Shown one piece after another: positions 2,308 through 61,712 of a stretch of DNA of 64,000 nt (position 1 is its first letter; each line of letters starts with the position of its first letter). The stretch is from the IMG/VR virus record IMGVR_UViG_3300004806_000016; one strand, written 5' to 3'. The stretch comes from a virus. Position numbers and translations under genes: made by a program. A model generated the notes under the pieces. It saw nothing but the letters and a program-made list of their open reading frames with translations, made no database searches and was not told where the DNA came from.

Positions 2308-3642
2308 ATGTTTAAGTTTAAAGATTTTCTAACGGAAGCGAAGAAAAAAGAAGAAGATGATTTTAAAACAGGCGATTCTGCTGGTAAACTTTTTGAATTA
2401 CTTAAAGCCAGAGAACAAAATGGCGGAACGTTTCCCGAATCTCACAGAGTTGAAGGCAAAACACCAACTGATATTCATAACAAGATGGCTGCTAAAATGT
2501 TTGGTGATGAATATGAAAAACATCCACAATATAAAAATCTTGTTAAAACAGCACAAATTGCTGCAAAAGCAAACGATACTTTCAACCAATCAGAACATGG
2601 TCATGATGTTAAGAAAGGTTATCAGAGAGTCGCATGGACATCTCAACCAGCAGATCATCAAAAAGAAACAGGTCATGAAGATCCAAATTCTGTAGCCGAT
2701 AGTATCCCGACATTAAGTCATGGCGCTATGATTGCGCATTCTGACAAATTAACAGGTAAAGGTCAATCAGTCAACTATAAGAATCCAGGTTCTAAGACTA
2801 TGGAGATGTTGGCTCAGACTAGTTTAAAAAAACATACTGAACCTCATGCAAAATTGTTAAAGGACAAAAAGTTAACGAGTGGCGAAGAAGGTCATAATCA
2901 ATACAAAGCATTAAGAGATTCTGATAATCCAGAAGATCAAGAAACAGCAGCTTCAGTAAAGAAATCGGCTGATGTAGTCAACCAAAAATTTGCTAAAGAT
3001 ATACATGCTGGTCTGTTGGCTCAACAGGCTAGAGATGCTCAAAATGGTACTAATGAATTGAGAGATACTATCGTTAAAGCAGTAGCTCCTAAGACTCACC
3101 TTAAGACAGTCGTTACTCATACTGAAGTCGATAATCATGGTAATCATGCGCATACTAAAGTTTATGACTTGCACGATCACGTCAACCAATACTTAAATAA
3201 TTTCGAAAATTTACACGTAGATCCAGTCCACAAACAAGGGCAATCTTCAGTCACAGTTTATGGTCATCATAAAAAAACTGGTAAAAGAATGAGATTGATG
3301 GGTCTTTCAGTTTATTCTGGGGGTAGACCAACAACCATTTCTCCTAGAGGCGCCATAACTCTTCCTAGCGAGAATCATCCTGATGTTGAATATACTAATC
3401 ATCATATAGTTGGCGCTAATGGTGAACATCAAACAAATACTCCTGTTAAACAGAAACATTCTGTAGAAAAACCAGTAGAACAAAAGAAACCAAAAACAAG
3501 AGAACCAGGCCCAAGAGCTTTATCGAGTATCGTAAAGCCAAGACCTAAAATTGTTACTAATCAAGAACAGAAACAACAGAAAACCAACAACAGCAGACAA
3601 TCATCAATTGGTGGTAAGAATTTTTATGGTGAATCAGAATGA
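2308..3642 (+). CDS. Putative internal head protein, possibly PD-(D/E)XK nuclease-like
   Basis: N-terminus MFKFKDFLTE resembles the T4 capsid-targeting sequence. GKLFE...SVAD...HSDK spacing suggests a restriction-like fold (weak). His/Lys-rich. Confidence 0.5.
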   Translation: MFKFKDFLTEAKKKEEDDFKTGDSAGKLFELLKAREQNGGTFPESHRVEGKTPTDIHNKMAAKMFGDEYEKHPQYKNLVKTAQIAAKANDTFNQSEHGHDVKKGYQRVAWTSQPADHQKETGHEDPNSVADSIPTLSHGAMIAHSDKLTGKGQSVNYKNPGSKTMEMLAQTSLKKHTEPHAKLLKDKKLTSGEEGHNQYKALRDSDNPEDQETAASVKKSADVVNQKFAKDIHAGLLAQQARDAQNGTNELRDTIVKAVAPKTHLKTVVTHTEVDNHGNHAHTKVYDLHDHVNQYLNNFENLHVDPVHKQGQSSVTVYGHHKKTGKRMRLMGLSVYSGGRPTTISPRGAITLPSENHPDVEYTNHHIVGANGEHQTNTPVKQKHSVEKPVEQKKPKTREPGPRALSSIVKPRPKIVTNQEQKQQKTNNSRQSSIGGKNFYGESE

Positions 3643-5540
3643 TCAATTTCAGACAGTTTATCATTGAGGAAGAACAGCAAGAAGGCAAGAAACTCAAGCA
3701 TCTAACTCACATCGAAGACATGCCAATCCATCATGGGCATGAGGGTGTTGCTGCTGCCGATGCTATGCTTAGGGATACCCATAAGGCATTGACTGGCAAG
3801 GGAATGGGTAAGTCAACCATATCAACAAAATATGATGGCGCTCCTTCTATCGTTTATGGTCATCACCCAGAGACTGGTAAATTCTTTGTTGCTTCTAAGT
3901 CAGCTTTCAATAAAGATCCAAAGATAAACTATACACCTGAAGATGTAGAACGTAATCATGGTCACGCTCCAGGTCTGGTAGAAAAACTAAAGGCAGCATT
4001 AGAACATCTTCCTAAAGTCGCGCCCAAGAAAGGTGTGTTCCAGGGCGATGTTATGCATACGCCAAACGATGTTGAAGATCATGATGGTAAGTATCACTTT
4101 ACGCCAAACACCATCAAGTATTCTGTAGGTAAAGATTCTACTGAAGGTAAAAAGATTAAGAACTCGAAGTTCGGTATCGTTACTCATACTCAGTATGATG
4201 GTAAAGATATGGGTTCTATGAGCGCTGCTCCTATCAGTCAGGAAAACAAAGATAAGTTTAAGCAACATCCTGACGTACATCAGATCGACCCTGCGACGAA
4301 TACGGAGGGTGCACACTATACTCCTGAGATGCAAAAAGAATTTGCTAATCATATGGAGAATGCGAGACGCACCTACGCTAATATGGACCACTCAACCCCA
4401 GAAATCACAAAAGGCCATGAGATAAATCTTGAGGCTCATGTTAACGACATGGTTCGTAAGGGTGGCACTCCATCAGTCGAGGGTTTTATCTCACATCTTA
4501 AGAATAAGAAGATGAAAGATGTAGAGAAACTAAAATCCCCAGCTGGTAAAGAAAAGAAAGCCAGAGAGCATGACGATAACATAGGTCATGTCGAAGACAA
4601 CAAAGAACACTTTAAGAATCTATTAGATCTACACAGTCATCTACAGAAAGCCAAGAACGTTCTGGTTAGAGGATTGAATTCATCGGGTAGCCCATATGAG
4701 CATTCCGTTGACGGCAAGAAGACTGATCCCGAGGGATTCGTAATCAATCGTGGCGATCATATGTCTAAGCTGGTCAATCGCGATGAGTTCTCAAGAATGA
4801 ACCTTCTTGGCGCTGGTAAGATGAGCAAGAGAAACGAACCAGCAAAAGAAGAAGATGATAAGCCAATCGTCTATGCGCATGGTAGAATGAATCCACCACA
4901 TGCTGGCCATGAAGCTGTGATCAATAAAGTCCATGAGCTTGCTAATCAACAGGGTGCAGATCATAAGGTCGTATTGACTCATACTCAGGATCCTGAGAAG
5001 AATCCACTATCACCACAAGATAAGCTGGCTCATGCTAAGAAACTATTCCCAAAGACAAACTTCGGTCTATCGGATGACGAGCACCCAACACTAATAGAAC
5101 AGCTTGCTAAACTAAACAAGGCTGGCCATAAGAAACTGACAATGGTTGCTGGCGATGATCGCGTAGAGGGTTATAAAAAACTATTGAACGATCGCAACGG
5201 TAAAGATTTTGATTTTAAAAAGATTGATGTAGTATCGGCTGGTGGTCGAGATCCAGACTCTGAGGGCGTTGAGGGTCTTTCGGCTTCAAAGATGAGAGAC
5301 CATGCTATCAACGGTCGTGCTAAAGAATTCGCTGCTGGGCTACCAAAAGGAACAAGCCCAGAACATGCTAAACAATTGATGCAAGATACAGCCAAGGGAA
5401 TGGATATTCCTATCACTCCAAGCACTCATCCTGTTACTCTTAAACGTCATGCTCTAAGAAATGATCCGATCGGCCATGCTGCTCAGAAAGAGTTAAATAG
5501 AAGAGCTGCCGAAAAAGTAATGAGTAAGAAGAAAAAATGA
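3639..5540 (+). CDS. Fusion of an RNA/DNA-ligase-like nucleotidyltransferase (DUF6267-like) and a HIGH-superfamily cytidylyl/adenylyltransferase
   Basis: Ligase motifs TKYDG, FVASKS, FQGDVM, EGFVI and KLV in order. C-terminal GRMNPPHAGH, VAGDDR and SASKMR. N-terminus MINFRQFIIE. Confidence 0.75.
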   Translation: MINFRQFIIEEEQQEGKKLKHLTHIEDMPIHHGHEGVAAADAMLRDTHKALTGKGMGKSTISTKYDGAPSIVYGHHPETGKFFVASKSAFNKDPKINYTPEDVERNHGHAPGLVEKLKAALEHLPKVAPKKGVFQGDVMHTPNDVEDHDGKYHFTPNTIKYSVGKDSTEGKKIKNSKFGIVTHTQYDGKDMGSMSAAPISQENKDKFKQHPDVHQIDPATNTEGAHYTPEMQKEFANHMENARRTYANMDHSTPEITKGHEINLEAHVNDMVRKGGTPSVEGFISHLKNKKMKDVEKLKSPAGKEKKAREHDDNIGHVEDNKEHFKNLLDLHSHLQKAKNVLVRGLNSSGSPYEHSVDGKKTDPEGFVINRGDHMSKLVNRDEFSRMNLLGAGKMSKRNEPAKEEDDKPIVYAHGRMNPPHAGHEAVINKVHELANQQGADHKVVLTHTQDPEKNPLSPQDKLAHAKKLFPKTNFGLSDDEHPTLIEQLAKLNKAGHKKLTMVAGDDRVEGYKKLLNDRNGKDFDFKKIDVVSAGGRDPDSEGVEGLSASKMRDHAINGRAKEFAAGLPKGTSPEHAKQLMQDTAKGMDIPITPSTHPVTLKRHALRNDPIGHAAQKELNRRAAEKVMSKKKK

Positions 5541-6820
5541 TGGATGAAGACAAGCTATTAAAAAATCTAGCAAAAGCTCTAGGTAATGAGAATTTATTAG
5601 AAGAGCTTGAACAGAAAAAAATAAAAGAAGAACAGCTCTTAGAAAATATCAATAGAGCGTTTACTGGTCTTTCTTTTAAAGAAAAGACGCAGGTCGAAGA
5701 GGCATTTGAGAATCCTGTTCCTATAATCGAAGATGTTCCTGTTGGGTTTACAGCCCCGCCATCAAAACCTGGAGAACCAGCTGCTATTCCGCTTGGAGCC
5801 CAGCCATTACCACAGCTTCCTCATAAAGATTTTGTTACCAAAGCAGTTGATGCATTATCTCAGAAACCAAGAGATGAATATGTAGCTGCTGTTGATGCTA
5901 TTCCAAATAGTATCCGCAAGGAACTTGATATACTAAAGAAGACAGTTACTGATCTTCATCGCTTTTCTTCACGCATCTCTCAGATGGGCGGCGGCGGTGA
6001 AGTCAACCTTCGCCATTTAGATGACGTCAATAGATCATCTATCGCTGACGGTCTCTATCTTCGCTACGACGCAGCTACAAAGAAGTTTGTGTTTGACGAT
6101 CCAGTTTCCAGTCCAAACTTATTGAATGTCGCCTCTGATATTATACCATCAACGACTCTAACATATACTATTGGTAATACAACACATCGCTGGGATTCAT
6201 TATATGTTGGTTCTAACTCCATTACCTTTTCGGACTCTCTAGGTGGTCCAGATCAGGTATTGTCAGTTGCGAATCAGGTATTCTATATCACTCAAGGTGC
6301 AGGAACAAACACGGCATATAACGCCAATGCGGGATTCAATGCTGGTGGGATCATTTTACAAAACTATACTATTCAGTTAGCAAATACATCGCAAAATTTG
6401 ATAGTCGGTTCTACTTCCGTAAACACAAGCGTTATCTTTAACCAAAACATCAAAGCAAATACAACTATTACTTTTACTGACAATACCGTACAAAATACAG
6501 CTTATAAGGCTCCTAACGTAAGAATAGCAAACGTAATATCAAATACAGTGTTAATTGATTTTGCATCGGACAACTTTGTCCACATTCATACCAACGATGG
6601 AACAGTTACTGCTAACTTACAGAATCTTACTGCTGGTAAAGTTGTTGAGCTATTCATCTTTAACAATGTCGGCGGTACTCAGCAGTTCAACCATGGCGTT
6701 TCCTCAACACAGGCTACAGGCGGTCAATCTTTTTATCTAAGCTCTCACAATACGATGTATGTTAAGTATTTCTGTTTAGATGGAACTGCAAACAATACGT
6801 TCGTAGCTGCTATAACATAA
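5537..6820 (+). CDS. Virion structural / fibre-like protein
   Basis: GGGGEVNLRHLDDV motif, then a Thr/Asn-rich beta-type C-terminal region. Confidence 0.6.
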   Translation: MMDEDKLLKNLAKALGNENLLEELEQKKIKEEQLLENINRAFTGLSFKEKTQVEEAFENPVPIIEDVPVGFTAPPSKPGEPAAIPLGAQPLPQLPHKDFVTKAVDALSQKPRDEYVAAVDAIPNSIRKELDILKKTVTDLHRFSSRISQMGGGGEVNLRHLDDVNRSSIADGLYLRYDAATKKFVFDDPVSSPNLLNVASDIIPSTTLTYTIGNTTHRWDSLYVGSNSITFSDSLGGPDQVLSVANQVFYITQGAGTNTAYNANAGFNAGGIILQNYTIQLANTSQNLIVGSTSVNTSVIFNQNIKANTTITFTDNTVQNTAYKAPNVRIANVISNTVLIDFASDNFVHIHTNDGTVTANLQNLTAGKVVELFIFNNVGGTQQFNHGVSSTQATGGQSFYLSSHNTMYVKYFCLDGTANNTFVAAIT

Positions 6821-6827
6821 GTTATTT

Positions 6828-6898
6828 TATAAATATTACGTTGCAGAAGGCTACGGCAATCCTGCGTTGTAAACTGGTTAAGCCCAAGGGAAACACCA
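6828..6898 (+). promoter_or_regulatory. Late promoter plus structured 5' leader
   Basis: TATAAATA at 6828-6835. Hairpins GCAG..CTGC and TGGT-..CCC-AA-GGG..-ACCA enclose the RBS region. Confidence 0.5.
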
Positions 6899-7690
6899 AT
6901 GTCGAAAGAAAAAAGTCTCCATTCTAGTCCTCAGCTAGTATTCGAAGAGCAACAAAGGGTTGTCGTAGACCCTTCGCACAAAGAAATTATGTCTTTGTAT
7001 AGAAAATCAGAACAATCAGGCCACTCGTTTGATACTCTCTTAGAGGTGTATCGCCGTGGATTCATGGTGTCTGGCGATCAACAGAGCGCATTTAATAGAG
7101 TTAATTCGTTCATTGCAGAAGGTAAGGCGTACGAGATGGATAAAGATTTAGTAGAAAAGCGTGGCCTCTGGGATAATATTCACGCCAAGCGCGAGAGAAT
7201 CAAACATGGTTCTGGTGAACATATGCGCAAGCCTGGATCTAAAGGTGCACCGACTGCGCAAGCTCTTAAACAATCTCAGACTAAAGAAGCATATACAGGC
7301 GCTGAACCAACAACATCAAATACAGATAGTCCATCAAGTCGTTTTGTTGGAACAAATGAATTGACTGATACATATGCTAACATGACTCCAGGTCAATCAA
7401 AAGCAAAGACAATTAAGCGTATCGTTAAAGAAGTTAATGAAGATAAAAAAGGTTATAAGAATCCAACTGGTGGCTTGACTCAGAAGGGCAGAGACCATTA
7501 TAATAGGGAAACTGGTGGTCATCTCAAAGCACCAGTAACTACTCCTCCTTCAAAACTAAAGAAGGACAGTAAAGCTGCTGGTCGTCGTAGATCATTCTGT
7601 GCTCGTATGGGCGGTGTAAAAGGTCCGATGAGAGACGAACACGGTAAGCCAACTCGTAAGGCTCTCGCTCTAAGAAAGTGGAACTGTTAA
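6899..7690 (+). CDS. Multi-module basic head-associated protein (DUF6321-like C-terminus)
   Basis: Modules GLWDNIHAKRERIK..GSGE.MRKPG and GGLTQKGR...RRRSFCARMGG...ALRKWNC, both of types common in phages. Confidence 0.65.
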   Translation: MSKEKSLHSSPQLVFEEQQRVVVDPSHKEIMSLYRKSEQSGHSFDTLLEVYRRGFMVSGDQQSAFNRVNSFIAEGKAYEMDKDLVEKRGLWDNIHAKRERIKHGSGEHMRKPGSKGAPTAQALKQSQTKEAYTGAEPTTSNTDSPSSRFVGTNELTDTYANMTPGQSKAKTIKRIVKEVNEDKKGYKNPTGGLTQKGRDHYNRETGGHLKAPVTTPPSKLKKDSKAAGRRRSFCARMGGVKGPMRDEHGKPTRKALALRKWNC

Positions 7691-7857
7691 TGAAAACTTT
7701 TAAACAATTTGTCTCAGAATTAACTACGCCAGTAAGCACTACTGGCAAGAGACAGACTGTGCATATGAAGACTGGCCCTGCTCGCGACATGACTGGTAAG
7801 ATAATCCATACTCCAATATTCAAGAGTGCAAGCTCAAGAAGTGGTGGTGGAAAATGA
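7690..7857 (+). CDS. 55-aa internal-protein-like peptide (not in ORF track)
   Basis: MKTFKQFVSELTTPVSTTGK...; translationally coupled at both ends (TAATG and ATGA overlaps). Confidence 0.7.
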   Translation: MKTFKQFVSELTTPVSTTGKRQTVHMKTGPARDMTGKIIHTPIFKSASSRSGGGK

Positions 7858-8480
7858 AAACGTTCCTTCAGTATCTAGAAGAGTCAAGAAGAGGGACTCA
7901 TCACTACGTAGATATTGACGATACACTGTTCCATACTACTGCCAAGATTGGTGTTAAAGATCAACATGGTAAAATCTATAAGAGATTGAGTAATAGCGAA
8001 TTTAATACCCATGAATTACCAAAAGGTCATTCGTATGATTTTGCTGAGTTTAGAGACGCTGATAAATTCTCAAAAGAATCTAAACCCATCAATCCGATGA
8101 TATCTAGAGTTAAGAAGATAGCAGATAATATTAAGAAACACCCAAACAGTAAGGTGCATCTATTGACTGCTAGAGCTGATTTTGATGACAGAGAAAAGTT
8201 TCTTGATACGTTCCGTAAACATGGTTTAAATATGAATGATATACATGTCCACCGTGTAGGTAATGTACCTGGGAATGAATCACCTGCTAAGAAAAAAGCC
8301 GATCTTATTCGCCAACATCTACATAAGTTTGGTAATAAGAAGGTAGTGATGTATGACGATAGTAAAGCTAATCTTAAAGCATTGCTAAATATGAAGAAGG
8401 AACACCCTGATGTGAATTTTTCTGCATTTCATGTTGGGCCACATGGGGAAATGACACCACATAAAGATGGAGATAAATGA
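7854..8480 (+). CDS. HAD-family phosphatase (polynucleotide 3'-phosphatase-like) with capsid-targeting-like N-terminus
   Basis: DIDDTL, LTAR, K and YDDS motifs I-IV; starts MKTFLQYLEE. Confidence 0.8.
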   Translation: MKTFLQYLEESRRGTHHYVDIDDTLFHTTAKIGVKDQHGKIYKRLSNSEFNTHELPKGHSYDFAEFRDADKFSKESKPINPMISRVKKIADNIKKHPNSKVHLLTARADFDDREKFLDTFRKHGLNMNDIHVHRVGNVPGNESPAKKKADLIRQHLHKFGNKKVVMYDDSKANLKALLNMKKEHPDVNFSAFHVGPHGEMTPHKDGDK

Positions 8481-8803
8481 TGGAATTTTTAATTGCAATT
8501 GGATTTATGGCAGTAGTTTCTACTGTTGTCTATAAAATGATCACCAAGAAAGAGACAGCTGAAGTTGCAGCTACTGAGACTGCAAAAGAAGTTGTTACTG
8601 CAGCCGAGCCAGTCGTTGAACAGGTTGCTAACACTGTTCTTGCTGAAGTAAAGGCTGAGGCACCAGTAGTAGCAGCTGCTATTGAAGCTGTAACTGAACC
8701 AGTTGTTGAACAAGTTGCTGCTGCTGTTGAAACAAAGGTTGAAGAAGCAGTAACTGAAGTTGTTGCTAAGATTAAGAAGCCAAGAGCTAAGAAGGCAAAA
8801 TAA
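8477..8803 (+). CDS. Membrane-anchored Ala/Val/Glu-rich protein
   Basis: N-terminal TM segment, EPVVEQVA repeats and a basic tail. Confidence 0.6.
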   Translation: MMEFLIAIGFMAVVSTVVYKMITKKETAEVAATETAKEVVTAAEPVVEQVANTVLAEVKAEAPVVAAAIEAVTEPVVEQVAAAVETKVEEAVTEVVAKIKKPRAKKAK

Positions 8804-9240
8804 TGGATGAGCTTATTGAACAGATGAAAGTTGTGTTGGCGAGTGTATTTGCACTCTATTTAAAGACACATTATTTTCATTGGAATATTGAAGGACCAAA
8901 CTTCCCTCAATACCATTCTTTCTTAAACGAACTCTATGAAGAGATCTTTGAATCGGTTGATGCTCACGCTGAACAGATTCGCACCATGGGTGCATATGCT
9001 CCAGGTTCTTTTGTTCGTTTCAAGGATCTATCAATCATCCAGGATGAGATAAACATTCCTAGTGCTATGTCTATGTTGACTCAGCTTCAGAAAGATAATC
9101 TGGCAGTCATAGTAGAATTAAAGAAAGCAAATGATCTCGCCGAGAGAGAAAATGCTGTCGGCACTGCGAACTTTCTACAGGATAGAGTTGATAAACATTA
9201 TAAGCATGATTGGATGCTTAAATCTATTACAAAGGCATAA
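8803..9240 (+). CDS. dps: Dps/ferritin-like DNA-protection protein
   Basis: HYFHWNIEGPNF..H..L.ELY....D..AE.IR signature; C-terminal KH.WML. Confidence 0.9.
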   Translation: MDELIEQMKVVLASVFALYLKTHYFHWNIEGPNFPQYHSFLNELYEEIFESVDAHAEQIRTMGAYAPGSFVRFKDLSIIQDEINIPSAMSMLTQLQKDNLAVIVELKKANDLAERENAVGTANFLQDRVDKHYKHDWMLKSITKA

Positions 9241-9242
9241 AA

Positions 9243-10502
9243 ATGGACAACAAATTTAAGTCACTAGAAACGATTATCAAAGAGATGGCAAATATCCATC
9301 GCAACTCAGAATTGCGTAAGAAGGTGACTAATGTTGCTCGTCCAGATACAGCGACTGATCCGACTGATGTAAAGTCAAAGATTGCTAAACAGGCTGAGAT
9401 CAAGAATAAGATAATTGATGAGGCTAAGGACGAAGCTCCTAAAAAAGATAGCAAGAGCGACGAATCCCATATGGATGATCCTAAAAAGGTCAAGGGCGGA
9501 AAGACTGAAGTTGACGTCCAGCCAACAACCGATGATAGACTGAGCGATGATTCGGCTGAGACTAAAGATTCAGATAAGACTCGCAGAAAAGAAAACAAGA
9601 AGATCGGTCAGAAGGGCGCACCAATTAAAGAGGCAGCTGATACTTCTGTTAAAAAATATGAAGGCCCAAAACATACATATGGCCCAGACGGTACTCGTCA
9701 TAAAGAAGTCTTAAAACAGATTAAAGACGTAATAACTAAACACCTAAATCACACTAATTTTAACAAGGAGGAGACTCAGATGTTCTCAGACAAGAAATTC
9801 GGAGTTTCCGAATCAGTAATCAAATCAGTTCTTGCTATCGTAGAAGCCGACAAGAATAAGTCAATTGACGGTGCTGAATCAGGTGCGAAGTCAGAAAAAG
9901 ACGAGACTAAAAAAGTAGCTAAGATGAAAGGTATGTGCCCATCTTGCAAAAAGAGTCCTTGTGAATGCATGAAAGAAGAAAAGTCATGTGGTTGTGGTGG
10001 TAACTGCAAGTGCTCTACAAATGAAGAGCTAAAGGGCGGTCAGAAGAAGCTAGATAAGAACCACAACGGTCATCTAGATAAGCAAGATTTCGAGATGCTT
10101 CGTGGCAAGAAAAAAATGAAAGAAGAAGCTGAACATCTTGACGAGATCTCAAAGAAAACAGCAATGAGTGCTTATCAAAGCGCAACTTTTGTAGACGATG
10201 AACACCCAAAAGCTGATGCGATTCGTGGTCACATTGAAAAGAAGTGGGGTAAGGAAATGGGTAAGCATGCTGATGCTCATGCTCATCTTTCAAACTATCC
10301 TCGCCACAATCCATTTCAAAAAGATGATAAGTTAAAGAGTGCAAAGCCAGCCTCAAAAATGAGAACAACTGCTTCAGGTAAAATCCATAAGCAAGACATT
10401 GCTGCAAAGAAAACGGAAATTAAGTCACGCATGAAAGAAGAAGTTGAATTTTCTGCTGAAGAAATTGCACGTATCGAAGCAATCGCCAAGGAAATGGAAT
10501 AA
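9243..10502 (+). CDS. Highly charged prohead-core/internal-head-like protein
   Basis: Lys/Glu-rich with repeated xKEE motifs, a Cys cluster and an EF-hand-like LDKNHNGHLDKQDF. Confidence 0.6.
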   Translation: MDNKFKSLETIIKEMANIHRNSELRKKVTNVARPDTATDPTDVKSKIAKQAEIKNKIIDEAKDEAPKKDSKSDESHMDDPKKVKGGKTEVDVQPTTDDRLSDDSAETKDSDKTRRKENKKIGQKGAPIKEAADTSVKKYEGPKHTYGPDGTRHKEVLKQIKDVITKHLNHTNFNKEETQMFSDKKFGVSESVIKSVLAIVEADKNKSIDGAESGAKSEKDETKKVAKMKGMCPSCKKSPCECMKEEKSCGCGGNCKCSTNEELKGGQKKLDKNHNGHLDKQDFEMLRGKKKMKEEAEHLDEISKKTAMSAYQSATFVDDEHPKADAIRGHIEKKWGKEMGKHADAHAHLSNYPRHNPFQKDDKLKSAKPASKMRTTASGKIHKQDIAAKKTEIKSRMKEEVEFSAEEIARIEAIAKEME

Positions 10503-27291: not shown

Positions 27292-27971
27292 TGAAAACAA
27301 TAATAAAACACATTTTTGGTAATATTGATGAATATGATTTACAGGTTTATAAATTATCATTAGATCTTGAGGGGGAACCAGAGTATAAAGCATTAGAACA
27401 GGGTTGGTCTGTTCAATATGGTAACTGGTATCCTTCTAGAATGGTAAGGCTAGATCTCTCGAGATATAATAAGACGCCAAAACAAATCAAGAACTATACG
27501 TTTACTCATCACGATAACCCAGAAGATTATTCTGAGTTTGAAAGGGTGTTTGAGGAATTCGTAGTAGCAAGAGACTTTACCCCACAATATAAGATAGCCA
27601 CTGATCTTGATAGGACTAGCTGGCTATCAGTGCATAAAGAAGATAGATTGGTAGCTTTCACTAAGTTTATCAATTATGACGGTGGATTAGAGAGTCAGTT
27701 TACTGCTTGGGATTACTCTGAGCCTAAATTGTCTATTGGCGTAAAGATAGTTGACTATGAAGTTGAGGTAGCAAGATCTAAAGGATTGGACTATCTTTAC
27801 ATCGGTCCTGGGTATGGTAAATCCTGTTTCTATAAGTCTAAATTTCAGGGTTTCGAGTGGTGGACTGGTACTGAATGGTGCGGCGACATACAGGCATATC
27901 AAGAAATATGTATGCGCGATTCAACTATAAATACATTTGATGATTTATCCAAACTGATATGGGACCACTGA
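27291..27971 (+). CDS. Aminoacyl-tRNA--protein transferase-like (ATE1/Bpt GNAT fold)
   Basis: ALEQGW, R.VRLDL, WDY..PKLSIG, A...GL.YLYIG and YK..F..FE motifs. Confidence 0.65.
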   Translation: MKTIIKHIFGNIDEYDLQVYKLSLDLEGEPEYKALEQGWSVQYGNWYPSRMVRLDLSRYNKTPKQIKNYTFTHHDNPEDYSEFERVFEEFVVARDFTPQYKIATDLDRTSWLSVHKEDRLVAFTKFINYDGGLESQFTAWDYSEPKLSIGVKIVDYEVEVARSKGLDYLYIGPGYGKSCFYKSKFQGFEWWTGTEWCGDIQAYQEICMRDSTINTFDDLSKLIWDH

Positions 27972-27972
27972 T

Positions 27973-29220
27973 ATGCCTGGAGTAATAAGCAAAAAGGGTA
28001 AAAAGAACCCAAAGCTAATTAAAGTCTTGACTAAGAGAGCAAGACAACTGATGAACGATAATCGTTTCAAAGTCAGAATGGCAACTATCAACAGAGTTCC
28101 TATCAATAAGAAATTTGATATTCCCTATCTAGCAGGTTATTCTAAAGACGGCAAGACAGTATACATTGACCGTCATCTTAAGACAATATTTCAGGGTGTT
28201 GATATATCTCAGTTCCTTCGCATACATGAGATAGCAGAAAAGACACTACTAGATTTAGATCATCTTACATATCAAGAAGCCCACCATATCGCTACACATC
28301 TAGAGCGCATGGCTGTTGAAAAGGTAGGTCTTAACTGGGAAAAATATACAAAATTCCTAGAACCATACATTAAGAGAGTCCATGGTGAAGATTTAAAGAT
28401 AGTTCCTAAAGATTTAGATCTTGAGCCATACGCCGATGAACATGATCCTATCCTCAGAAATCTTATGAAGAAGGAAGGCGTAAGGGATATTAAAGCCAGA
28501 ACGGTCAGAGAATCAATAGGACTTGATGAAGTCAAGATCAGCCTAGAATATCATGACGAGCTGAATCCTGTTCTGTGGGATGGTTTTAAATTAAAGCCAG
28601 AAGTAAGAAACAAACTGATGGAATTTGCGAAGGCATGGGCCAGTTTCGCGAAAATACCACTTGACATTATACAGGATATCATTATAATAGGTGGTAATGT
28701 TAATTATAACTACACATCTAAATCAGACATAGACGTCCATCTTATCCTTGATCGCGATCAGCTGGGCCAAAACAGAGAGATGGTTGATGAATATCTCCAA
28801 GACAAGAAAGTCCTATGGACTCTCACACATAAGGTGTCTGTACTCGGATACCCAATCGAACCCTATGCGCAAGACTCACATGCAAGTTATCCCCGTGGTC
28901 AAGGCGTCTACAGTATCAAACGAAACACGTGGGTTCAATACCCTCCTCGCGGGAAATACGACTTTAAGAACGATCCAGCTCTAAAGAGAAAAGTCTTATT
29001 CTATAAGAGACTGATCGATACCATCATCAAAGATAAGATGGATGTTGGTGCTGTTAGAGATCTAAAGGCAAAGTTGAGAGATATGCGTGCTGCTTCTATT
29101 GCCGATGGTGGTGAGTTTGGTTTCGAGAATCTAGTGTTCAAGGAACTAAGGAACCGTGGTTATCTTGATAAGATGAACAAATATGAATTAACAATGAAAG
29201 ATCAGGAGTTGAGTTTATGA
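27973..29220 (+). CDS. Pol-beta-superfamily nucleotidyltransferase with extra N-terminal domain
   Basis: IIGGNVNYNY...SDIDVH, IEPYAQD and GEFGFENLVFKELR motifs; TATAAATA at 27926. Confidence 0.75.
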   Translation: MPGVISKKGKKNPKLIKVLTKRARQLMNDNRFKVRMATINRVPINKKFDIPYLAGYSKDGKTVYIDRHLKTIFQGVDISQFLRIHEIAEKTLLDLDHLTYQEAHHIATHLERMAVEKVGLNWEKYTKFLEPYIKRVHGEDLKIVPKDLDLEPYADEHDPILRNLMKKEGVRDIKARTVRESIGLDEVKISLEYHDELNPVLWDGFKLKPEVRNKLMEFAKAWASFAKIPLDIIQDIIIIGGNVNYNYTSKSDIDVHLILDRDQLGQNREMVDEYLQDKKVLWTLTHKVSVLGYPIEPYAQDSHASYPRGQGVYSIKRNTWVQYPPRGKYDFKNDPALKRKVLFYKRLIDTIIKDKMDVGAVRDLKAKLRDMRAASIADGGEFGFENLVFKELRNRGYLDKMNKYELTMKDQELSL

Positions 29221-55060: not shown

Positions 55061-55214
55061 TATGATTCCTAGCTGGTATAAAATCTACACACGCATCATT
55101 GACAATACTATAAAGATAGTTTGGTTGATATTACTGATAACATGGCTGCTTGATGGCGCCAAATTGCTTGTAAAATAACTTGACTTTTTACCCAATGTAG
55201 GCTATAAATAATAT

Positions 55215-55530
55215 GCGATGGTCGTTGACGTTATACGGCATAAGCACACTGGACTCGGGGGCGGTACCCGACGCCTCCACCATAGATACATGGTGCTGTT
55301 ACCAATTAAGGTGTAAGGATGCCATCAAAAAGAACGTACAGCTCCGTTCTGGCAAATCGTCATCATGTATCTTTGCTGGGGGCGAAATAGGATCGACAGG
55401 TGTGATAAAGGTATTACTGAGATCATAGCAAACGTCATAGATGCAAACGATAATGCACCTATCGCTATGGCACTAGCTGCCTAAGCATGAGCTTTTGGTA
55501 GTTTTGGCTTGGAAACAGAACAAAACTACC
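55215..55530 (+). ncRNA. ssrA: Two-piece (circularly permuted) tmRNA
   Basis: Acceptor piece ends ...TCGGG-GGCGGTA-CCCGA-CGCCTCC-ACCA (55282). Coding piece starts GGGGGCGAAATAGGATCGAC (55378), giving the G3-U pair. Tag ANDNAPIAMALAA at 55443-55484; 3' hairpin at 55497-55530. Confidence 0.93.
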
Positions 55531-55531
55531 G

Positions 55532-55987
55532 TCAATAACAACTTCGTTGATGTAATACTAATCCATTAACTGAAATTATTTTTTTACAATTCAAACAACA
55601 TACCTTTTTTTGTTGTTTTCCTTGCATTGGATTTTTACCATTTCGGCTTTGTTCTTTTCTTTTTTCTATTAAATGTTCTTTCATTCCAGGCATTTTCCAC
55701 ATATTTAATATTTTATTTTTTTGTTGTTCTTTATTTTTAGGTAATTTATTCATATGCCAAGAATTTCTTTTACCATTTTCCGACATGGTTAACGATATAA
55801 TTTTTTCTTTATCTATCATTTTAGATAAACCAAGCCAAGCAATTCTATCGTATTCATTACCATGTTGTTCCCATAATTTTTTGTGCGCTTCTGCGTGCTC
55901 TTCTACAGTTAAAAGAACAATATTAGATGGATCGTCCGATCCACCAGCGTGTTTAGGAATTATGTGATGTTTGTGATAAATAACCAT
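55532..55987 (-). mobile_element. Free-standing HNH homing endonuclease
   Basis: HHIIPKHAGGSD..SN...LT..EH..AH motif, NPM.GK and a C-terminal Cys motif; AT-rich; opposite strand; own TATAAATA. Confidence 0.85.
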
Positions 55988-58691: not shown

Positions 58692-58717
58692 GGGGAGCAT
58701 TTAGCTCCCCTTTTTTT
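58692..58717 (+). terminator. Terminator between convergent genes
   Basis: GGGGAGC-ATTTA-GCTCCCC followed by T7. Confidence 0.85.
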
Positions 58718-61712
58718 ATGCTGCCATTCCGAACAGATCTTTGAGACGTTTCGCTGCATCAGCAGGTTCAACCATACCAACATTATCTTTATCAAATCTA
58801 GCATTACCTTCTTTACCAGATGCCGGAGCCTGACCACCACTGTTAGATGGAGCTTCAGCAGCAATATTTTTATCAGCCGATCTCTGACTTGCTATGTCGT
58901 TAGAAGATGCTTTGGCTAAATCGGCACCAGTAGACGGAGCTGCAGGAGTCGGAGTACCACCACCGCCACCACTGGCCGCTTCGCTTCTCATTCCGCTGCC
59001 ACCACCCTTGGCTGGTTTTGCACCACTACCACTATCTTCCTTCTTGGCTTGTGGTGGAGTAGCTGTATCTGGACCTCCTGAGCCGACTGGGTCTTTACTC
59101 TTATCTTCTTTCTTTCCGCCCTGATCACCACCGCCACCACCACTGGCTGCAGTACCCTCAACTTCACCAGCAGCTATGGATCCATTTCTTGGGATATCAA
59201 ATGTTCCCTGTTCGCCTTTCGCAGCAGAAAAATGCATAGGATCTTTGACGGATTTCCAATTCATACCCCAACCAAGACCCCACTTAGCAGCAAGCGCACC
59301 AGTCTCTGCTGGTAGATCTGTCTTTGTTGACTTGTTTGGATTTGATCCAGGATTGATATCGATAGCAGCACCAGATGCGTGGTAACTCTTTACGCTTGGG
59401 TTGTTTACGTTTGCACGATCAGCATAACCACCTATGCTACTAATCTTATAACCCGTGGCCTCAAGATCACTAATGAATCCTTGGAAGTTCTTAGCATAAG
59501 CACCAGCAACCTGTACCGACTTGCCGCTAGCAGTTTTTACGTTTACAAGATTTGGTTTTGATACAGGACCACCAACACCCTTACTTGCTCCACCTATTGC
59601 TGCAGGACCACCAGCAGCACCACCAGATCCTTGACCGCCACCAGCTCCAGATGGCATCGATACTGAAGGGCTACCAGAAGGGCCAGCACCAGTAGCAGCA
59701 GTAGCAGATTTTGCTACTGATTCTTTAACTGCATCAGCTCTCTGCATAACAACTGCAGCGCCAGAACCACCACCTCCGCCAGAAGGTTTGCCAGCTCCTA
59801 CAGGACTGGGTGGGCCCATCTCTTGTGCTTTTGATACATCTGCACTCTTGGCTGCTCCAGCAGCAGGAGCTTGTGTAGTTGGTGTTGAAGTGAATATGAT
59901 CTTATCTGCTTTAAGGATAATTGTATCAGCTTCAAATGTTAGTTCTTTTTGTCTCTTTTGTTTTTCAGCATCAGCGTCATCTTCTTGTTTTCTTTCAACA
60001 GCAGCCTGACGTTCTGCCATGATAGCAGAAGAAATATCGGGCATATTATCGTTGGAAGAAACAATTTGTGGTGTGTTTTGTTTTGTGGCAACAATTGGTG
60101 CTTCAGATTTTACTGGTCCTGCAGCTTCTGGTTCTGGTTTAATGTCGCCTTTGTCTTCAAGATTATTTCTACCAGCCTGTTGTTGATCTTCTGGTAATTC
60201 TTTATCTTCTTCATCTTTTTGCGATGAGAATTCTTTCCACCAATTATATACTTCATATGCTAGCGCCAAAGAACCTAAAACATTTATAGCAGTCCACACC
60301 CATCCTGGGCCTGGTAATGCTAGACCAGCGAGAGCACTACCTGCTCTGACCATAAATCTTCTAAACACAGATGGTGCAGTCTTTTCTAAGAATGTTAAGA
60401 ATTTAGACCATTTGCTTACGCCTTGTGTCGCTGCATTACTTGCAGCTCCAGCAACTTTGGTTGCTACAGCACCAGCACCTTCGGCGACAGCTCCCGCAGC
60501 TTTTGTTGCTATTGAGCCAGCTCCTTCTACTACTGCACCTGCAGCTTTAGAAGCGCCACTTAATACTCCTTTACCAGCGCTCATTAGACCGCTACCAGCA
60601 GAGCCTGCGATATCCATAGCGCCACCAGCAAGTTTACTTAATAATCCTGGACCTTCTTCTTTCTTGGCTTGTGGCTGCTGTTGTGGTTTTGTTGATGTAA
60701 GATGATCAGCTATATCTTTTAGATACCCATTTGCTGTATCTATCTTATCACCATTACGGCTTATCGCCTCTTCTATTTTTTCCATAGAAAGGCTCTGGCT
60801 TACGCCACTCTTAGAAACAGCCTCTCCGTCTTGTTTTTCGGATGAACGAATCTTTTCGCCGTTCTGTCCAAGACCTAATTTCTCAGCTTCTTTTCTAGAG
60901 ATAAATTGACCGCCACCAACACCCTTGTGCGTATCGGCCCACATACCAGCTTTTTCTCTGAACTCATATCTCTCTCTTTCAGGGACGATTGGTTCGGTAA
61001 CAGCTGGTTTTGCATCAGGTTTTTTATCTTGGTTAGATTTTAACATATCTCTGAGCAGCTGATTCGTCATCATCTGCTGTTCGACTATCGCCTTAGAAAA
61101 AGACTCAGTCGATTCAGACATACCACCGCCTGATTTGTTTTCGGCTTTTGGTTTATTTTCTTCTCTTTTTTGAACTAATCCTTTTAGGCCAGGAAATGCT
61201 TTTACGAATAGATCATCACCAATATCTTTGACTGCACCACCAATAGATTTAGTTATAGATTTTGTTAGTTCTTTTAATTCTCTAACGACTTCAGGTTCTT
61301 CTGTACCAAAACCATCTCTCTTTTTTACATCCTGTTTAGACGCAACTTTTAGTTCTTTTACTAGACCCTTTACTTCTTCAAAGAATGGGCGAGTCGGACC
61401 ATAGCTTACACCATAGTCAGCATTCTGTTTCATTTCTTTGGTTTCAGTTTTTGATGTAGTTGTCTGTTTTTGTAACTTGACCTGCTCTTTTGTAAGGCTG
61501 ATCAGTTCTTTTAGAGCATCATTAGTCTTTTTTTGCTCTTTCTTGAGCTCAGAAACTTCTTTTGTGGTCTTTACAGATTCTTTAGCAACTTCTTTCGCGG
61601 AATCTTTATTCTGTTTAGATATGTCAAGCTGTTCCTGCGCAGTTCTTGCTATATCAGGATTATTAGTCTGCTGTAAGAGTCTCTTTAGATCGTCGTCTGT
61701 AAAATTAGCCAT
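58716..61712 (-). CDS. Tape-measure/baseplate-hub-like protein with an M15 peptidoglycan peptidase domain
   Basis: Helical N-terminus, Ala/Gly repeats, a TM-like segment, and SYHASGAAIDIN...WG..W....DPMHF. Confidence 0.7.
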   Translation of the reverse strand: MANFTDDDLKRLLQQTNNPDIARTAQEQLDISKQNKDSAKEVAKESVKTTKEVSELKKEQKKTNDALKELISLTKEQVKLQKQTTTSKTETKEMKQNADYGVSYGPTRPFFEEVKGLVKELKVASKQDVKKRDGFGTEEPEVVRELKELTKSITKSIGGAVKDIGDDLFVKAFPGLKGLVQKREENKPKAENKSGGGMSESTESFSKAIVEQQMMTNQLLRDMLKSNQDKKPDAKPAVTEPIVPERERYEFREKAGMWADTHKGVGGGQFISRKEAEKLGLGQNGEKIRSSEKQDGEAVSKSGVSQSLSMEKIEEAISRNGDKIDTANGYLKDIADHLTSTKPQQQPQAKKEEGPGLLSKLAGGAMDIAGSAGSGLMSAGKGVLSGASKAAGAVVEGAGSIATKAAGAVAEGAGAVATKVAGAASNAATQGVSKWSKFLTFLEKTAPSVFRRFMVRAGSALAGLALPGPGWVWTAINVLGSLALAYEVYNWWKEFSSQKDEEDKELPEDQQQAGRNNLEDKGDIKPEPEAAGPVKSEAPIVATKQNTPQIVSSNDNMPDISSAIMAERQAAVERKQEDDADAEKQKRQKELTFEADTIILKADKIIFTSTPTTQAPAAGAAKSADVSKAQEMGPPSPVGAGKPSGGGGGSGAAVVMQRADAVKESVAKSATAATGAGPSGSPSVSMPSGAGGGQGSGGAAGGPAAIGGASKGVGGPVSKPNLVNVKTASGKSVQVAGAYAKNFQGFISDLEATGYKISSIGGYADRANVNNPSVKSYHASGAAIDINPGSNPNKSTKTDLPAETGALAAKWGLGWGMNWKSVKDPMHFSAAKGEQGTFDIPRNGSIAAGEVEGTAASGGGGGDQGGKKEDKSKDPVGSGGPDTATPPQAKKEDSGSGAKPAKGGGSGMRSEAASGGGGGTPTPAAPSTGADLAKASSNDIASQRSADKNIAAEAPSNSGGQAPASGKEGNARFDKDNVGMVEPADAAKRLKDLFGMAA

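Follow-up and report, generated by a model that had tools for sequence, protein, structure and literature searches.

What would a phage do with two nucleotide-activating enzymes in one polypeptide? This question is raised by an open reading frame (ORF) at 3639-5540 (+ strand) of the virus record IMGVR_UViG_3300004806_000016, of which a stretch of 64,000 nucleotides (hereafter the window) was analyzed. An earlier interpretation made from the letters of the DNA (the sequence-only reading) proposed that this frame joins a covalent, ligase-type nucleotidyltransferase to a transferase of the HIGH superfamily and that the two chemistries are coupled on one substrate, for example in RNA ligation, in capping or in NAD synthesis. 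The explanation that we put forward, tentatively, is a break-sealing ligase that is injected with the phage DNA, works on RNA more likely than on DNA and has an adenylyltransferase as its partner, the protein being made late and probably packaged in the phage head.

The frame is indeed a single stop-free one of 633 amino acids (aa), and 23 contigs carry the identical protein. The stretch encoding the linker between the halves (4810-4860) is spanned by contigs from four sequencing runs, one of them possibly the source of this DNA, with 0 indels and 0 base changes. Thus, the fusion is real, and a sequencing artefact is ruled out as its origin. The gene-bearing runs listed are all freshwater metagenomes, with no RNA run among them. 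The DNA comes from an uncultured phage of the T4-like group: gp43 and uvsX lie upstream of gp41, whose end is at 622, and primase, thymidylate synthase and ribonucleotide reductase are found downstream. The N-half matches Pfam DUF6267 over residues 20-389 (3696-4805; E 5e-96) as well as phrog_455, and belongs to the cyanophage cluster T4-GC71. The C-half matches the phage "cytidyltransferase" families phrog_3041 (E 1e-55) and phrog_395 over residues 405-592 (the HIGH domain proper being about 409-592, 4863-5414), and belongs to the cyanophage cluster T4-GC190. Between them (4806-4862) lies an unconserved linker of ~20 residues, with a median of 20 aa over 143 fused rows. The eight motifs on which the sequence-only reading was built all occur in the claimed order (KYDG at 64, ASKS at 85, QGD at 135, FGIV at 178, EGFV at 365, KLV at 377, the HxGH motif at 415-424 and SASKMR at 548).

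To assign folds, each half was modeled and compared with known structures, as the sequence-only reading had suggested. The AlphaFold2 model of the N-half, built from 129 relatives (pLDDT 94.5), was compared with 48,161 chains in VIA, where the top six matches are all RNA ligase chains, representing NgrRnl, Trl1 (twice), REL1 and T4 Rnl2 (twice). The best match is NgrRnl (5cot; Z 8.7, root-mean-square deviation 3.9, 190 residues aligned), followed by 6n0t (Z 7.9), 1xdn (7.8), 9r3w (7.7), 1s68 (7.7) and 2hvq (7.6). T4 Rnl1 and archaeal Rnl3 score Z 7.0 and DNA ligases 6.7 or less, and RNA or DNA ligases make up about half of the top 40 rows. The first named match outside the family found by Foldseek in BFVD is also an RNA ligase (E 9e-3), and the Atlas lead for the N-half is RNA_ligase (score 0.76). 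The modeled N-domain thus matches Rnl/ligase folds, as predicted. Set beside T4 Rnl2 and T. brucei REL1, it covers the catalytic domain of Rnl2 (4-233; Z 7.7) and ends in FS like Rnl2, while its motif Ia SKS recalls the SKGS of T4 Rnl1.

The residues conserved in the N-half are those expected of such a fold. Among the 129 relatives (32-55% identity), K64 is conserved in 98%, D66 in 97%, K87 in 96%, D137 in 96%, E365 in 95% and K377 in 98%; K64, D66, D137, E365 and K377 are likewise kept in the cyanophage copies checked. The catalytic residues of NgrRnl are K170 and D172 of motif I, E227 of motif III, E312 of motif IV and K326 of motif V (PMC7261155), and their counterparts by motif order are K64, D66, D137, E365 and K377, respectively. 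On the model, the N-half therefore appears to have the ligase fold, with KxDG, the acids of motifs III and IV and the lysine of motif V in order. K64 (bases 3828-3830) is the predicted acceptor of nucleoside monophosphate (NMP), and it very probably forms the Lys-NMP adduct. The proposed series of ligase motifs I-V holds for K64, D137, E365 and K377; it does not for F178 of FGIV, which is Phe in only 16% of the relatives. The conserved residues of that strand, which reads G-I-V-V-H-T, are G179, H183 and T184, placing His-Thr where known ligases have an aromatic residue, and H183 (98%) may take over the role of the aromatic. In addition, the acid of motif III is Asp instead of Glu, and motif V consists of one lysine plus R381. 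Further invariant residues specific to the family are H21, H24, H183, T184, N157, K339 and R381.

The N-half also differs from known ligases in architecture. Compared with NgrRnl (Rnl5, 5COT), with which it shares 10% identity, it lacks an OB domain at the N-terminus, and a helical insert of ~120 residues (at about 229-347; shorter in P-SSM4) separates motif IIIa from motif IV. Only ~17 residues precede the catalytic domain in the model, an OB domain is found at neither end, and the C-terminal domain of the Rnl2 type is missing; motif V leads into the 20-aa linker and then the HIGH domain, and in the split forms into a stop codon. The HIGH domain thus stands where T4 Rnl1 and Rnl2 have their C-terminal domain, and the protein, which is late and bears a leader, stays below the Pfam cut-offs of both. 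PF09414 and PF09511 (Rnl2/Rnl1) gave no match at cut-off, with 2 and 3 of the 129 rows, respectively, at E 0.01-1; PF01068 (ATP-dependent DNA ligase) matched neither the protein nor any of the 129 rows; and no NCBIfam model of the TIGR02306 type was among the top matches. Searches of PDB sequences with the protein and with the N-half alignment found no ligase, and hhalign comparisons of that alignment with T4 Rnl1, Rnl2 and gp30 were not significant, motifs IV-V aligning weakly to T4 Rnl1 224-241. When the N-half was shuffled 20,000 times, a loose ligase-motif pattern turned up in 13 cases, a weak control as the pattern was drawn up with the protein known. On the model, then, the N-half resembles the catalytic domain of Rnl2 and Rnl5 while lying outside every named ligase family.

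The C-half (pLDDT 95.5) is a HIGH nucleotidyltransferase by its modeled fold and its motifs. Its best VIA match scores Z 13.5 with 151 residues aligned, and a Vibrio NadD-like protein, archaeal NMNAT, NadM, PPAT (13.1) and Plasmodium NadD tie at Z 13.0-13.5, whereas glycerol-3-phosphate cytidylyltransferase scores only 9.3. Given this tie, the fold ranking picks no single substrate. With these enzymes the C-half shares the Rossmann-like fold, (H/T)xGH, NP(L), GxD and SxSxxR, present here as HxGH at 421-424, N455-P-L, K462, G505-x-D-R, R537 and S548-x-S-x-x-R; H424 and S548 are conserved in 98% and R553 in 91%, and TIGR00125 matches 43 of the 56 C-half rows. It differs from them in reaching no family cut-off. 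The C-half alignment gave no significant hhalign match to E. coli NadD and matched CoaD in the HxGH region alone. R537 and the following EG(M)S548 presumably resemble the RTEGIST-type cytidylyltransferase motif with an insert. The top PDB sequence match of the alignment, the TmcAL-like MJ0951 (E 6e-7), suggested an acetate ligase; this candidate was dropped because the match consists of two short motif stretches and its fold rank is low (Z 9.0).

The expression and destination of the protein are suggested by the sequences that precede it. The ORF lies in an operon (2308-6820) headed, 30 bases before its start, by the T4 late promoter consensus TATAAATA (2271-2278, + strand), which directly follows a terminator-like hairpin that would end the upstream unit (2236-2267, + strand; a 10-pair stem with seven G-C pairs and a T-rich tail). 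The seven copies of TATAAATA in the window are not above chance; those at 2271, 6828 and 11552 are intergenic and 30-70 bases ahead of a start. The protein itself begins with MINFRQFIIEE (3639-3671), a capsid-targeting-like leader that resembles the start MKTYQEFIAE of T4 IPII/IPIII. In T4, the leader of internal proteins steers them into the prohead (PMC3012670). The leader pattern, which was drawn up with these proteins in view, occurs in 72 of 85 DUF6267 proteins, compared to 67 of 876 other ORFs, and in 5 of the 218 window ORFs, all of which start within 2308-10502. No full leader remnant is found in the linker of the 143 fused rows, 24 of which have (I/L)xE there. T4-GC190 is a core gene of cyanophages and was found experimentally as a virion protein (PMC3037559), and published proteomes place the HIGH half in the virions of S-SM1, S-SCSM1, S-SZBM1 and S-CREM2. 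Together, the leader of the T4 internal-protein type and the late promoter suggest packaging, and the protein is probably a component of this phage's head. Such a cargo would share the leader pattern and late promoter of T4 IPI-III and differ from them in being a 633-aa enzyme instead of a small inhibitor, with its packaging read from sequence.

Further analyses revealed potential repair partners among the neighboring genes. A HAD-type phosphatase with DxDxT and the same leader is encoded in the next late unit (7854-8480, + strand; phrog_415, E 7e-8) and is, by its sequence, a candidate end-healing partner, without pairwise likeness to T4 PseT; a HAD gene lies within ~4 kb of DUF6267 at 19 of 84 loci. 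At 17 of the 84 loci, a P-loop domain with GGPGSGKD is fused to the HIGH partner, and one relative (P0150) has a Pol-beta domain, while a Pol X motif search across the loci found none. An end-healing set of the HAD, kinase and Pol-beta type has been described for phage RNA repair (PMC7824862), and phosphatase and kinase genes near the relatives recall the tRNA repair by T4 Rnl1 with Pnkp, as well as Rnl2. No match to the Rnl1 or Rnl2 family was found in five DUF6267-bearing genomes, a search in which the Rnl1 positive control also failed to match.

We propose the following course of events. By analogy with T4 internal proteins, the leader would load the protein into the prohead and be cleaved after Glu, and the protein would be injected with the DNA. 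The N-domain would then act as an Rnl2/Rnl5-like ligase, in which K64 takes up NMP, which is most likely AMP derived from ATP, while D66, D137 and E365 are predicted from the model to hold metal and K377, R381, K87 and H24 to hold phosphates. It would adenylate a 5'-phosphate end and seal it to a 3'-OH. That the N-domain seals a polynucleotide is likely, and if it does, RNA is slightly favored over DNA as the substrate, because RNA ligases lead the fold ranking, an OB domain is missing, and HAD, P-loop and Pol-beta partners occur. The most likely job would be to mend RNA, for instance tRNA that host defense nucleases have cleaved, while the RNA ends would be cleaned by the HAD phosphatase or P-loop kinase present in many relatives. 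The HIGH domain, which occupies the place of the OB or C-terminal domain of other ligases, would move NMP onto a phosphate monoester, and we lean toward its acting in the same pathway as the ligase. It would most likely serve the ligase through adenylate, by making or recycling the nucleotide donor or by activating the 5'-phosphate, which is the weakest step of the scheme. A bolder version, which we consider unlikely, would have the HIGH adenylyltransferase replace the OB or C-terminal domain and perform or feed end activation, so that two unrelated folds treat the same broken nucleic acid one after the other; injected from the head, the protein would be the ligase so far missing from the most abundant T4-like phages of aquatic habitats.

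Several observations weigh against this explanation. The best Z of 8.7 for the N-half is modest and exceeds those of DNA ligases by just 1-2 units; Foldseek ranks archaeal DNA ligases at the top, every one with E above 0.02; and no search detected a ligase at the sequence level. The residue equivalences follow motif order instead of residue-level superposition, and since changes affect the aromatic of motif IIIa and the second lysine of motif V, the sequence does not name the bound nucleotide. The P-loop domain is barely like T4 PseT (8.9 bits), and HAD and kinase genes are rarely found together. About 90 phage records (e.g., Paride and JP4) have the HIGH gene with no DUF6267 detected, among which some DUF6267 may have escaped detection, as a remote fold match in PA5oct warns. 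The cyanophage ligase copies checked have no leader, which is borne there by the HIGH protein. In the virion proteome of S-SZBM1, the leader-bearing HIGH protein 140 is present and the leaderless ligase half S-SZBM1_141 is absent from the list; GC190 was undetected in the proteome of S-PM2, whose fused protein has no leader. Both proteomes agree with a leader carried by the cyanophage HIGH protein but not by the ligase. It should be noted that S-SZBM1_139 was found in the virion although it has no leader, and that these numbers are small.

The strongest alternative makes the N-domain a ligase of DNA nicks. It would then be the unrecognized replacement for gp30 in T4-like phages of aquatic habitats, or it would do the sealing in a fill-and-seal DNA repair kit whose other members are the Pol-beta, phosphatase and nuclease partners. 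The phage gp30 belongs to the non-cyanophage core only (PMC3037559 supplement), and PF01068, which matched in the T4 control, is absent from S-PM2, P-SSM4, P-SSM2, C48C1, Melnitz and a further genome (G001). The position of the gene after gp43, uvsX and gp41, the Pol-beta fusion, the nuclease-like genes upstream, the missing leader of the cyanophage copies and the top Foldseek matches, weak as they are, also fit a DNA ligase. ATP-dependent DNA ligases, however, grip the nick through an OB domain, which is missing here, and RNA ligases outrank DNA ligases by fold. The late promoter of the operon also speaks against a DNA ligase, and replication could be served by the ligase of the host. DNA sealing stays close because cyanophages lack gp30, but in one genome (G002) DUF6267 and a DNA ligase coexist. 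Overall, we regard a DNA nick ligase as somewhat unlikely and retain the RNA-sealing enzyme as the preferred explanation.

Whether the two halves belong together can be judged from their distribution. A search of 8,000 candidates returned 2,634 relatives, the best 120 of which are nearly all full-length fusions, and the N-half matches 2,099 clusters at 50% identity. In the survey of fused versus split homologues that the sequence-only reading had called for, fusion recurred at 15 of 80 viral loci, while at 58 the HIGH gene is separate and within ~2.5 kb and at seven the N-half stands alone, five of these at a contig end; the loci were ranked by the fused query, which favors linkage. The claimed coupling on one substrate gains no support from the 58 split loci, the short, unconserved linker, the distant HIGH gene of P-SSM2 or the HIGH genes of Paride and JP4, where no DUF6267 was detected. 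In a collection of 50,697 phage records, matches number 469 for the N-half, 557 for the C-half and 559 for the whole protein, so that nearly every bearer of the N-half also has the C-half. On a FastTree tree of 240 rows, the fused and separate states require 20-21 changes, at least 14 of them forced by well-supported branches; rows with fewer than 300 aligned residues and most near-copies were excluded, and some of the separate proteins are perhaps contig-end cuts. The cultured S-PM2 has a fused gene, S-PM2d138, of 591 aa in the resequenced record (LN828717; L125 986-2761), which four extra bases split in two in RefSeq NC_006820 (L001 5986-7765). A complex prediction of the N-half with the C-half scored 0.00, which is no evidence either way. 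The cyanophage genes of T4-GC71 (phrog_455) and T4-GC190 (phrog_395/3041) are direct homologues in the same place after gp41 (and mazG), differing in that they are mostly separate and carry the leader on the HIGH half only. Thus, the pairing is old and common, and the fusion is a recurring, labile arrangement and not a unique enzyme.

Such lability would also be expected if the halves were independent enzymes, both late cargo, whose fusion merely lets one leader carry two proteins. The many fusion and fission changes, the short and variable linker, the leader on many unrelated genes of the block, the HIGH gene that stands by itself in Paride and JP4 and is unlinked in P-SSM2 (~100 kb away from DUF6267), and the reversed domain order in one relative (P0141) are consistent with this explanation. 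It is nevertheless improbable, given that the same two domains fuse repeatedly, even in the leaderless S-PM2 protein and in remote relatives of 12-20% identity, and co-occur almost completely across the phage records.

Apparent bacterial copies were also considered as cellular genes. Two of them were ruled out, as a 188-kb contig of a Nonlabens isolate assembly (L091; NZ_RMVE01000006.1) reads as cyanophage, and a 5.2-Mb Anaerolineae scaffold (L104) has a 100-codon DUF6267 piece within an unrelated gene and is probably a chimera; the remaining matches in metagenome-assembled genomes were not individually checked. One DUF6267 relative (P0268) has a Hint/intein domain directly ahead of motif I, and at six loci (L013, L016, L026, L047, L051 and L060) a second, diverged HIGH paralogue lies beside the pair.

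It is still less likely that the ligase fold, instead of joining nucleic acid, hands the NMP on K64 over to another target, be it a host protein, an RNA end that is thereby capped or blocked, or a nucleotide that becomes an Ap4A-like decoy or signal, in host takeover or counter-defense. The lack of a nucleic-acid-binding OB or C-terminal domain would fit such a transfer; the invariant H21, H24, H183, T184, N157 and K339 hint at an altered site; T4 packages the modifying enzyme Alt, by annotation; and ligases yield dinucleoside polyphosphates as a side reaction. The related solved folds in the VIA list are, however, all polynucleotide ligases, and the neighbors are of the end-healing type. Capping in particular, one of the roles offered by the sequence-only reading, is unlikely, since capping guanylyltransferases require an OB domain with motif VI, which is absent from the fused and split forms and for which there is no room; capping enzymes are absent among the VIA matches listed, which is not an exclusion.

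NadD and NadM stack the pyridine on a Trp. That the HIGH domain is a true NMNAT, which would restore NAD+ against NAD-depleting defenses or supply NAD+ to an NAD-using ligase half, is very unlikely, for although NMNAT, NadD and NadM are among its best fold matches, the HIGH plus P-loop layout is that of NadR and the NMNAT label is used in cyanophage papers (PMC9602691), PPAT ties with these enzymes by fold, the NMNAT family models, with a best E of 3e-5, stay far short of their cut-offs, a Trp is present on the acceptor side (470-545) in just 5 of 56 rows, the Ia domain of NAD-dependent ligases is missing ahead of motif I, and neither a NadV nor a Nudix partner is found, with no NAPRTase in five genomes bearing the HIGH gene, while phage NadM is invariably accompanied by NadV (PMC9503650). 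NAD synthesis, as proposed in the sequence-only reading, therefore has no specific support, and "cytidyltransferase" and "NMNAT" are putative labels given by annotation.

The other genes of the late block and the window are as follows. Directly upstream, and overlapping the start of the fused gene by ATGA, is a 444-aa protein with the same leader (2308-3642, + strand), which shows a weak likeness to restriction nucleases (Atlas RE_HaeIII-like cluster, 19% of members, TM 0.51) and has relatives at 20 of 84 loci; the slot directly 5' of DUF6267 in relatives often holds a variable nuclease-like gene or a HAD phosphatase. A DUF6321 repeat-type protein (6899-7690) and a 55-aa leader-bearing peptide (7690-7857) are likely further internal head proteins, and a Dps/ferritin-like gene (8803-9240) has no leader and is found near DUF6267 at 32 of 84 loci. 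A 415-aa protein at 27973-29220, with a late promoter at 27926, matches phrog_36119, a family also fused behind the HIGH domain in one relative (L015:8234-11512). The window further encodes a permuted tmRNA (55189-55575; tag ANDNAPIAMALAA), with a TATAAATA at 55203, whose form we take to suggest an alphaproteobacterial host, as well as tRNA-Leu (26151), tRNA-Arg (56365) and a 998-aa protein (58716-61712, - strand) with an endolysin-like stretch at residues about 720-850.

The sequence-only reading knew of no characterized enzyme with this pairing, and in agreement with it, no paper was found that names DUF6267 or assigns T4-GC71 to the ligase fold, and searches under the misspelt GenBank name and for Kyanoviridae plus ligase returned nothing relevant, subscription papers lying outside these searches. 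To the T4-type leader, the late promoter and the identity of the halves with two known cyanophage clusters, none of which that reading had recognized, can thus be added a ligase assignment of DUF6267 that is new to the searchable literature, for a module that is real and widespread. The fusion seen here has many counterparts, and on its own it adds little. In water, few viruses are commoner than the T4-like cyanophages and their freshwater kin, in which no DNA or RNA ligase has been recognized. T4-GC71 and T4-GC190, near-universal in marine cyanophages, have lacked an assigned function since 2010. With DUF6267 assigned to the ligase superfamily, this family gains a predicted catalytic lysine, and the cultured S-PM2 offers a naturally fused copy of it; the assignment also makes "cytidyltransferase" and "NMNAT" doubtful as labels for its partner in lists of auxiliary metabolic genes.

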